7,864 nt of DNA from an archaeon. GTDB taxonomy: Archaea; Iainarchaeota; Iainarchaeia; Iainarchaeales; CSSED10-239. Where the stretch lies: positions 1 to 7,864 of the forward strand of contig JBAYPN010000030.1 of NCBI GenBank assembly GCA_041677685.1, given 5' to 3'. A program made the position numbers and the translations under genes. Under the pieces are notes generated by a model. It was not told the DNA's origin. It did no database searches and saw nothing but the letters and a program-made list of their open reading frames with translations. Positions 739 through 1,032 of this stretch are shown here, piece by piece; the stretch's first letter is position 1, and every line of letters begins with the position of its first letter.

Positions 739-1032
739 ATGGCTAGACCTAAAAAACTTGAGAAAAACAAGAAGATTTTTGTTCCAATAACTCTGGATAA
801 AAATATATATTTTTACTTAAAAAAACAAGATATTAAGATATCCACTTACATTAACCAAATGCTCAAAGTCGCTTTAAATAAAGGATCTAGAGAAAATGAC
901 AATTTTTATGACCCTAACCTTTCAACCTTGGTAAGGTTGAGGTCGCGAGTTCGACTCTCGCCAGAAGCTTTGAAAGGAGCTTTTACCCTTTATCTTAAAA
1001 AACAAAGCTTTAAATTTTGTTTCTTTCTATAA
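739..1032 (+). CDS. Ribbon-helix-helix (CopG/Arc-like) small DNA-binding protein, with a C-terminus read through a tRNA fragment
   Basis: The ORF starts at ATG. The N-terminal ~50 aa (KKIFVPITLDKNIYFYLKKQDIKISTYINQMLKVAL) show a strand-helix-helix pattern typical of RHH proteins. From about codon 62 the ORF is simply a translation of the tRNA-Thr fragment and its degenerate copy (923-1013). The C-terminal third is therefore probably a recombination-generated extension, not native sequence. Confidence 0.45.
   Translation: MARPKKLEKNKKIFVPITLDKNIYFYLKKQDIKISTYINQMLKVALNKGSRENDNFYDPNLSTLVRLRSRVRLSPEALKGAFTLYLKKQSFKFCFFL
923..969 (+). pseudogene. tRNA-Thr(GGU) 3' fragment (tRNA positions ~27-73), not a complete gene; candidate att site
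   Basis: Anticodon stem CAACC (923-927) pairs with GGTTG (935-939), with loop TTGGTAA and anticodon GGT at 930-932. The variable loop is AGGTC (940-944). T stem GCGAG (945-949) pairs with CTCGC (957-961), with T loop TTCGACT. The 3' acceptor strand is CAGAAGC (962-968) and the discriminator is T969. No CCA is encoded. No complementary 5' acceptor strand (G[CT]TT[CT]TG) or D arm occurs within ~200 nt upstream or ~60 nt downstream. Confidence 0.8.
972..1013 (+). repeat. Degenerate copy A' of the tRNA-fragment-derived unit
   Basis: GAAAGGAGCTTTTACCCTTTATCTT...ACAAAGCTTTAAA. It shares three parts with copies B, C and D: a short AAAG-loop-CTTT hairpin, a TTTTAC(C)-type anticodon-arm remnant, and an AAGCTTTAA acceptor-like end. 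It lies directly after fragment A. Confidence 0.5.

Follow-up and report, generated by a model that had tools for sequence, protein, structure and literature searches.

A tRNA-Thr(GGU) 3' part inside an archaeal open reading frame as the probable attR of an element integrated by an SSV-type tyrosine recombinase in Iainarchaeota

Introduction

A piece of a tRNA gene that lies inside an open reading frame (ORF) raises the question of how it came to be there and of what the ORF encodes. The window studied here, 7,864 nucleotides long, is the entire contig C30 of G000, an archaeal metagenome-assembled genome of 792 kb in 56 contigs with about 27% GC, which belongs to the DPANN lineage Iainarchaeota. 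A first-pass annotation, made from the letters alone, took the piece for a trace of an integrated element and suggested a covariance-model search, a search for an intact tRNA-Thr(GGU) and an accompanying integrase in the genome, and a comparison with relatives for an empty site. Its weak hint of an archaeal host was right.

In SSV-type, or "suicidal", integration, attP lies in the integrase gene (int) and a tRNA gene is the target; after integration, the intact tRNA adjoins int(C), and the 3' part that was displaced adjoins int(N) (PMC8371274, PMC7253208). The same int(N)/int(C) partition is described for PF16795 integrases, and SSV1 strand exchange takes place at the borders of the anticodon loop (PMC8371274). 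This main review of archaeal tyrosine recombinases names hosts in Sulfolobales, Thermococcales, Archaeoglobales and Methanosarcinales, frames the mechanism as a hyperthermophile trait and never mentions DPANN.

Results

The tRNA-Thr(GGU) fragment and its reading frame

Read directly, positions 923-969 of the plus strand are the 47-nt 3' part of tRNA-Thr(GGU), from the anticodon stem to the discriminator base (tRNA positions 27-73). They hold an anticodon arm (CAACC / TTGGTAA / GGTTG, anticodon GGT), the variable loop AGGTC, a T arm (GCGAG / TTCGACT / CTCGC), the 3' acceptor strand CAGAAGC and the discriminator T, and all parts that the first-pass annotation had named can be read. ARAGORN called no tRNA gene in the whole window. 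The Rfam tRNA model aligns cleanly with the 3' 47 nt alone, a forced pairing of the 5' acceptor strand fails, and the score is 21.8 bits, where the gathering threshold is 29. At up to 3 mismatches, no match to the 25-nt 5' half of this genome's tRNA-Thr(GGU) was found in the window, which bears out the earlier statement that the D arm and the 5' acceptor strand are absent. The fragment matches the intact tRNA-Thr(GGU) in blastn with an E value of 6e-12, and the number of chance matches expected for a 22-mer from it, estimated with shuffles, is 0. Judged by its sequence, the likeness of 923-969 to tRNA-Thr is far beyond chance.

The fragment is enclosed by ORF 739-1032, the container that had been given for it, and is translated in frame as int codons 62-77 (TLVRLRSRVRLSPEA); across the fragment the ORF reads ..DPNLS-TLVRLRSRVRLSPEA. 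The features of the window around the fragment, and the gene near the other end of the contig, are as follows.

1-699, plus strand: predicted SAM-dependent methyltransferase gene, open at its 5' end (weak matches to Pfam Methyltransf_31 and related families)
694-738, plus strand: upstream region of the predicted int(N), within a 248-bp module repeated on contig C28 (C30 694-941 against C28 4851-5097, 91%)
739-922, plus strand: predicted int(N), codons 1-61, RHH-like (CcdA-like) domain (homology to P0067 and P0068, Pfam CcdA, PDB 2ADL, AF2 model)
923-969, plus strand: putative attR core, 3' part of tRNA-Thr(GGU) (direct reading, Rfam, identity to the C20 copy, shared codon phase, end of the G006:C23 homology at 970)
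970-1032, plus strand: non-native read-through tail of the int(N) ORF to its first stop, which overlaps a degenerate short site at 972-1013
5739-7862, minus strand: beta-propeller protein gene (Pfam Beta_propel, E 4e-123)

The intact tRNA-Thr(GGU) and the integrase C-terminal part on C20

In the whole genome, ARAGORN placed an intact tRNA-Thr(GGU) at G000:C20:11499-11570, and the last 47 nt of this gene are identical to the fragment at 43 of 47 positions, with all four differences in the T arm. A search of the genome with the 47-mer at up to 3 mismatches returned the fragment of the window and no other copy. A reading frame opens inside the C20 tRNA-Thr, reads ..TLVRLRSRVQFPPEA.. and goes on into a tyrosine-recombinase domain, so that the intact gene predicted for the other end of the element is directly followed by an integrase C-terminal part, Int(C). 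In the window ORF and in the C20 integrase frame alike, the first base of the 47-mer is the second of a codon, and both ORFs contain the tRNA-encoded peptide TLVRLRSRV(R/Q)(L/F)(S/P)PEA. Joined, 61 window codons, 16 att codons and about 267 C20 codons would give an integrase of about 344 aa; the SSV1 integrase has 335 aa.

Of the two pieces of the C20 Int(C) frame, one aligns with positions 1-39 of the Pfam profile PF16795 (Phage_integr_3, "archaeal phage integrase"; E 3e-3) and the other with positions 41-160 (E 5e-25); on PHROG 5127 integrase they fall at 109-230 and 233-346 of 355. In a PF16795 scan of the whole genome C20 Int(C) scored 89.9 bits. It also matches PDB entries 4DKS, 3VCF and 3UXU, "Probable integrase", with an E value of 1.8e-8 and with RK..GR..HY motifs aligned. 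These entries are the SSV1 integrase catalytic domain, with which GIRVSE, KYCRKW, EGR and NHY of C20 Int(C) align. The C20 reading frame is broken by one extra AT (2 bases) in the GGCATATATACC run, (AT)3, near 11976-11982, and it runs from 11529 to 11987 and then, after the frameshift, from 11954 to 12373. In the sister species G006, of the same genus, contig C24 is 98.8% identical to the C20 tRNA and Int(C) and breaks off precisely at the AT run that carries the C20 frameshift; this run may be polymorphic or hard to assemble. The database protein P0007, labelled by NCBI as "integrase [Candidatus (I)ainarchaeum sp.]", corresponds to C20 Int(C) without the frameshift and reads straight through. 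The first ~240 residues of P0007 match C20 Int(C) and its C-terminal ~35 residues are identical to P0029; it is a hybrid of the sort known among suicidal integrases, or else an assembly chimera.

The genome contains other recombinase genes. Contig C55 (C55:1-881) starts inside tRNA-Thr(GGU) at the D loop, and runs into an intact 290-aa Int(C), 63-68% identical to that of C20. An M16-peptidase-like gene comes next. The contig probably represents a strain variant that branches off at the same tRNA-Thr. One PF00589 recombinase only is found in the genome, on C6, unrelated to the tRNA-Thr locus and probably XerA-like.

Int(N) and its homologues

A search with the intact C55 paralogue returned 68 PF16795 proteins, most of which have 260-290 aa and a tRNA-encoded peptide at the start and are split forms. 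Two of them are unsplit, P0067 (344 aa) and P0068 (343 aa), and their N-terminus, MPRPKLPEKAKK..ITLD..L..V, aligns to the window ORF. The identity is 43% over 44 aa for P0067 and 38% over 50 aa for P0068 (E 3e-7 for both), and P0067 has 49% identity to Int(C) in its C-terminal part (E 3e-52). No integrase similarity was found past 969 in the window ORF. Homology thus identifies ORF 739-1032 as Int(N), the N-terminal portion of an integrase of the SSV type and of the PF16795 family. The first-pass annotation had called this ORF an RHH gene; the RHH-like N-terminal domain holds, and what falls is the separate gene.

Pfam CcdA matches 5 of the 8 members of the Int(N) family (best E 2.7e-5), and the family profile matches the CcdA structure PDB 2ADL with an E value of 0.003. 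The AF2 model of Int(N) has two helices (21-29 and 34-46) after an extended segment, at a mean pLDDT of 66 that is too weak for a fold search. The N-terminal domain of this integrase family looks like a CcdA-type ribbon-helix-helix.

The same split is seen at other tRNA genes. The P0067 gene (L037:1580-2611) has tRNA-Ala(CGC) sequence embedded in it at 1753-1795, namely the 3' part that begins with the anticodon loop, and a split C-terminal part follows the intact tRNA-Ala(CGC) in three contigs (L039, L040 and L045). Int(N) homologues run into 3' parts of tRNA-Met(CAT) in G010 and G001 and of tRNA-Ser(GCT) in G006. In G010, a whole element of about 9 kb lies on a single contig (C7, ~28760-37808; L058), from tRNA-Met(CAT)::Int(C) to Int(N)::tRNA-Met fragment, with a direct repeat that extends ~43 nt past the 3' end of tRNA-Met. 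Its cargo comprises a DUF5906 P-loop protein, a VRR-NUC/HIRAN nuclease, Schlafen-AlbA_2, and Avd-like and wHTH proteins. The whole resembles a small plasmid-like element whose cargo is of the defence type. An unsplit copy of the window's own element was not found by a homologue search for longer proteins with Int(N), nor by protein among viral contigs; the exact Int(N)/att junction was not found in metagenome contigs and the att core was not found in viral contigs.

A second Int(N) is present in G000 itself, at C28:4851-5107; it shares its upstream region with the window Int(N), to which it has 91% aa identity. Of the tRNA part, only a decayed anticodon arm (TAACCTTGGTAAGTTTAAG) lies behind it, and then come unrelated AT-rich DNA and a methyltransferase gene. 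This copy is either an orphan scar or a secondary-site junction. The pN/pS between the two Int(N) copies is ~0.19, a value that comes from 16 differences and does not show selection after integration.

Boundaries of the element and the unoccupied site

The left part of the window recurs in G006. Contig G006:C23 is 96% identical to window positions 413-970, a stretch with the methyltransferase, Int(N) and the fragment in it, and the match breaks off just where the 3' end of the fragment is reached (970). This agrees with the earlier placing of the element to the left of the fragment. Identity between G006 and G000 is 96-99% at the element ends against 69-78% in backbone genes; the methyltransferase, with 97% aa identity to G006:C23:3-284, is likewise far above the backbone and is taken as cargo of the integrated element, at its right end.

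The right part of the window carries a host marker, the beta-propeller gene. Its homologues in G004 and G002 (66% aa identity) lie 3-4 kb downstream of tRNA-Thr(GGU). G004, which is closed in a single contig and has no PF16795 match, shows the order Hsp20, the two small genes that are also found to the left of the C20 tRNA, tRNA-Thr(GGU), about 3 kb, and the beta-propeller gene. The synteny of G004 therefore places the left neighbours of C20 and the right neighbours of C30 together in the unoccupied state, with the element presumably between them in G000. The empty site sought in relatives is thus seen in G004, and together with the C20 tRNA and its PF16795 Int(C) it upholds the proposal of a duplicated core left by a tyrosine-integrase element. 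In G000 both tRNA-Thr repeats lie on separate contigs, C20 and C30, of a metagenome-assembled genome and do not overlap, and their linkage comes from synteny with relatives, namely the empty site of G004 and the matching pair of junctions in G006. A search for the interior of the element in G006, G005 and G001, with the C20 tail and the C30 head as queries, matched the already known ends alone. A second tRNA-Thr repeat was looked for, and not found, up to 20 kb from the G002 tRNA::Int(C).

Another stretch is shared between the two species bins: G000:C50:1-3249 and G006:C44:953-4201 have 99.97% nt identity, and another PF16795 Int(C) precedes this stretch in G006. Either this is mobile DNA that the two came to share very recently, or the contigs were cross-binned.

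Proposed integration mechanism and alternative explanations

The reading that best accounts for this locus, to which we give a probability of about 88%, is that 923-969 is the attR left when an SSV-type ("suicidal", type I) tyrosine recombinase inserted a mobile element into the chromosomal tRNA-Thr(GGU) gene. The free element would carry attP, a copy of the tRNA 3' part, inside the int reading frame ~61 codons from its start, and recombination with the tRNA gene would divide the integrase gene. One product, int(C) joined to the rebuilt, intact tRNA, would be attL on C20; in the other, int(N), at the far end of the element, would run into the displaced tRNA 3' part and form attR in the window (739-969). 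The first base of the repeat is the 5' end of the anticodon stem. If SSV1 is a guide, the strands would be exchanged in the anticodon loop, and the CAACC/GGTTG stem would provide inverted core sites around a 7-nt overlap, TTGGTAA. The integrated copy is probably unable to excise by itself, because its integrase gene is split and the C20 half has a 2-base frameshift in the (AT)3 run.

The partner of the window Int(N) is less firmly placed than the junction itself. We infer its pairing with C20 Int(C) only from their co-occurrence in G006, since G000 has one more Int(C), an intact one, on C55 and one more Int(N) on C28. It is conceivable, though unlikely, that the attR is real and its partner is instead the C55 Int(C), as a strain variant or a tandem insertion, or that it is an older orphan scar whose partner is lost. 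The start of C55 inside tRNA-Thr(GGU) and its intact Int(C) fit the former, and the second Int(N) relic on C28 speaks for the existence of orphan scars. Against both, a 97%-identical Int(N) co-occurs in G006 with a 98%-identical C20-type Int(C), and the C55-type Int(C) is not seen in the 481-nt C24 junction at the G006 tRNA-Thr.

That C30 is the contig of a free plasmid or virus, with 923-969 as its attP and not an integrated junction, is very improbable. The contig is short (7.9 kb) and has a GC content of 23% against ~27% in large contigs, but the integrase catalytic part is absent after the att site, neither a terminal overlap nor other circularity of C30 was found, and its right part carries the beta-propeller gene of the tRNA-Thr neighbourhood. 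The 3' half of a Nanoarchaeum-type split tRNA gene, joined in trans to a separate 5' half, which the first-pass annotation had ranked as the less likely alternative, would suit a DPANN host and a start near the anticodon region, but it is rejected and not needed because the complete canonical tRNA-Thr(GGU) gene is present on C20; the fragment also starts at position 27 and not after position 37, is translated in frame within a conserved integrase N-terminal ORF, no separate 5' half was found, with no other copy given by the 47-mer search of the genome at up to 3 mismatches, and Int(N) homologues carry 3' parts of other tRNAs whose intact copies also exist.

Origin of the T arm

Integration at attR leaves a second question, namely which of the two repeats is host-derived. 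The T-arm differences between the repeats are one compensatory G-C to A-T stem pair (in C20) and two loop bases, TTCAATT in C20 and TTCGACT in the fragment. As the stem change is compensatory, either version could serve in a working tRNA. With an SSV1-like crossover, the window T arm, with its TTCGACT loop, would be the host original, and the TTCAATT T arm of the present intact tRNA would have come in with mobile DNA. In favour of this, the TTCGACT loop is found in the tRNA-Thr of all five other genus members, and mobile mini-sites carry the TTCAATT version in genomes with a TTCGACT loop in their own tRNA-Thr. Against it, the C20 and C55 Int(C), which are different genes, both adjoin the TTCAATT arm in G000; an Int(C) near-identical to that of C20 adjoins the TTCGACT arm in G006 and G005. 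These data conflict over which repeat is the host's. G001 was considered as a sister species for judging the native T arm and was dropped, its closeness to G000 not being established.

Short tRNA-Thr-derived sites downstream of the fragment

Positions 972-2770 of the window and contig C22 contain an array of short tRNA-Thr-derived sites between small cassettes (HicBA, an orphan gene and NYN). The features of the window part are the following.

972-1013, plus strand: possible short site A', degenerate (resemblance to the short-site consensus judged by eye only)
1053-1495, plus strand: HicB-like antitoxin (1053-1262) and HicA toxin (1274-1495), which make up the first cassette after the putative attR (Pfam HicA_toxin, E 2.6e-19; HicB assigned by a weak DUF7387 match and gene order only)
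1511-1541 and 1645-1662, plus strand: 5' and 3' parts of short site B, with an insert between them (nhmmer site profile, E 4.9e-5; comparison with C22)
2048-2097, plus strand: short site C (hairpin, 5' half of the anticodon arm, T loop, 3' T stem and acceptor end, with the tRNA middle missing)
2172-2726: NYN-domain gene (Pfam NYN, E 2e-26)
2722-2757, plus strand: short site D, degenerate, after the NYN gene (nhmmer, E 0.004; 76% identity to site C)

The array sites follow the HicBA, orphan and NYN genes. On C22 they lie on the minus strand near 6095-6062, 5674-5646, 4530-4480 and 2652-2635. Apart from the intact C20 and C55 tRNA copies, matches to the site profile in G000 at E <0.05 are on C30 (1511-1541, 2048-2097 and 2722-2757) and C22 only. 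Site C contains an exact 13-nt copy of the tRNA-Thr 3' end at 2085-2097, and three more copies of this end are found on C22 (13-mer, up to 1 mismatch). A mini-site of ~52 nt, which consists of a AAAAAGAGCGCTTTT hairpin, AACCTTTGG and then TTCAATTCCCGCCAGAAGCTT, is kept in G003, G004, G005, G006 and G011, and its conservation spans at least 2 genera.

The orphan cassette (ORF 1719-2054; window 1642-2079) is duplicated at C22:6079-5644 with 92% nt identity. The duplication extends from the 3' half of one mini-site into the 5' half of the next, as that of an integron cassette would. The array is consistent with serial insertion at a tRNA-Thr hotspot. A more specific and quite tentative idea is an integron-like array, in which the tRNA-Thr 3' end would be the entry site and integrase-less cassettes bounded by ~52-nt mini-sites would be moved in trans by co-resident suicidal integrases. 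Farther downstream, an intergenic AT-rich stretch of the window (4811-4902) contains four tandem 23-nt repeats (TAATATATATGCACTTTGTAACA), the last of which is incomplete.

Discussion

The closest counterparts of the window element are SSV1 and SSV2, fuselloviruses of Sulfolobales with type I integrases. They have the PF16795 catalytic domain in common with it, and in both systems attP would lie within the int ORF, some 60-65 codons in, the 3' part of a tRNA gene from the anticodon stem on is the target, int(N) is found at attR and int(C) is fused to the reconstituted tRNA. Unlike these viruses, the window element has an AT-rich DPANN host of Iainarchaeota and not a hyperthermophilic crenarchaeon, its target is tRNA-Thr(GGU), its integrase N-terminal domain looks like a CcdA-type ribbon-helix-helix, and no virus structural genes were seen in its assembled parts.

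The pTN3/pT26-2 "suicidal" integrases of Thermococcales, Archaeoglobales and Methanosarcinales also integrate into tRNA genes with a split integrase gene (PMC7253208, PMC8371274). [quoted passage not shown] Lambda-type (type II, pNOB8-like) integrases and Islander-type islands share with the window the direct repeat of a tRNA 3' part and the intact tRNA at one end, but they keep a whole integrase gene beside attL, whereas the gene of the window system is partitioned. The split tRNA genes of Nanoarchaeum equitans are likewise free-standing tRNA 3' portions in a DPANN genome; in contrast to them, the window fragment has a complete counterpart gene and lacks complementary leader and trailer sequences, and it is protein-coding and stands at an element boundary.

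The mechanism is thus a known one in a new and unusual host lineage, the Iainarchaeota of the DPANN. A literature search that combined "suicidal integrase" with DPANN lineage names listed no paper with this phrase in it, and the C-terminal halves are already labelled integrases by NCBI. The odd occurrence of a tRNA piece inside an ORF is explained as a textbook junction, and the annotation of ORF 739-1032 changes from an RHH regulator to an integrase N-terminal fragment. SSV-type self-splitting integrases with an RHH-like N-terminal domain are placed in Iainarchaeota, with tRNA-Thr, tRNA-Met, tRNA-Ser and tRNA-Ala as targets. The tRNA-Thr locus is flagged as an integration hotspot, and such junctions offer a handle on the movement of mobile elements between tiny, uncultured archaea.
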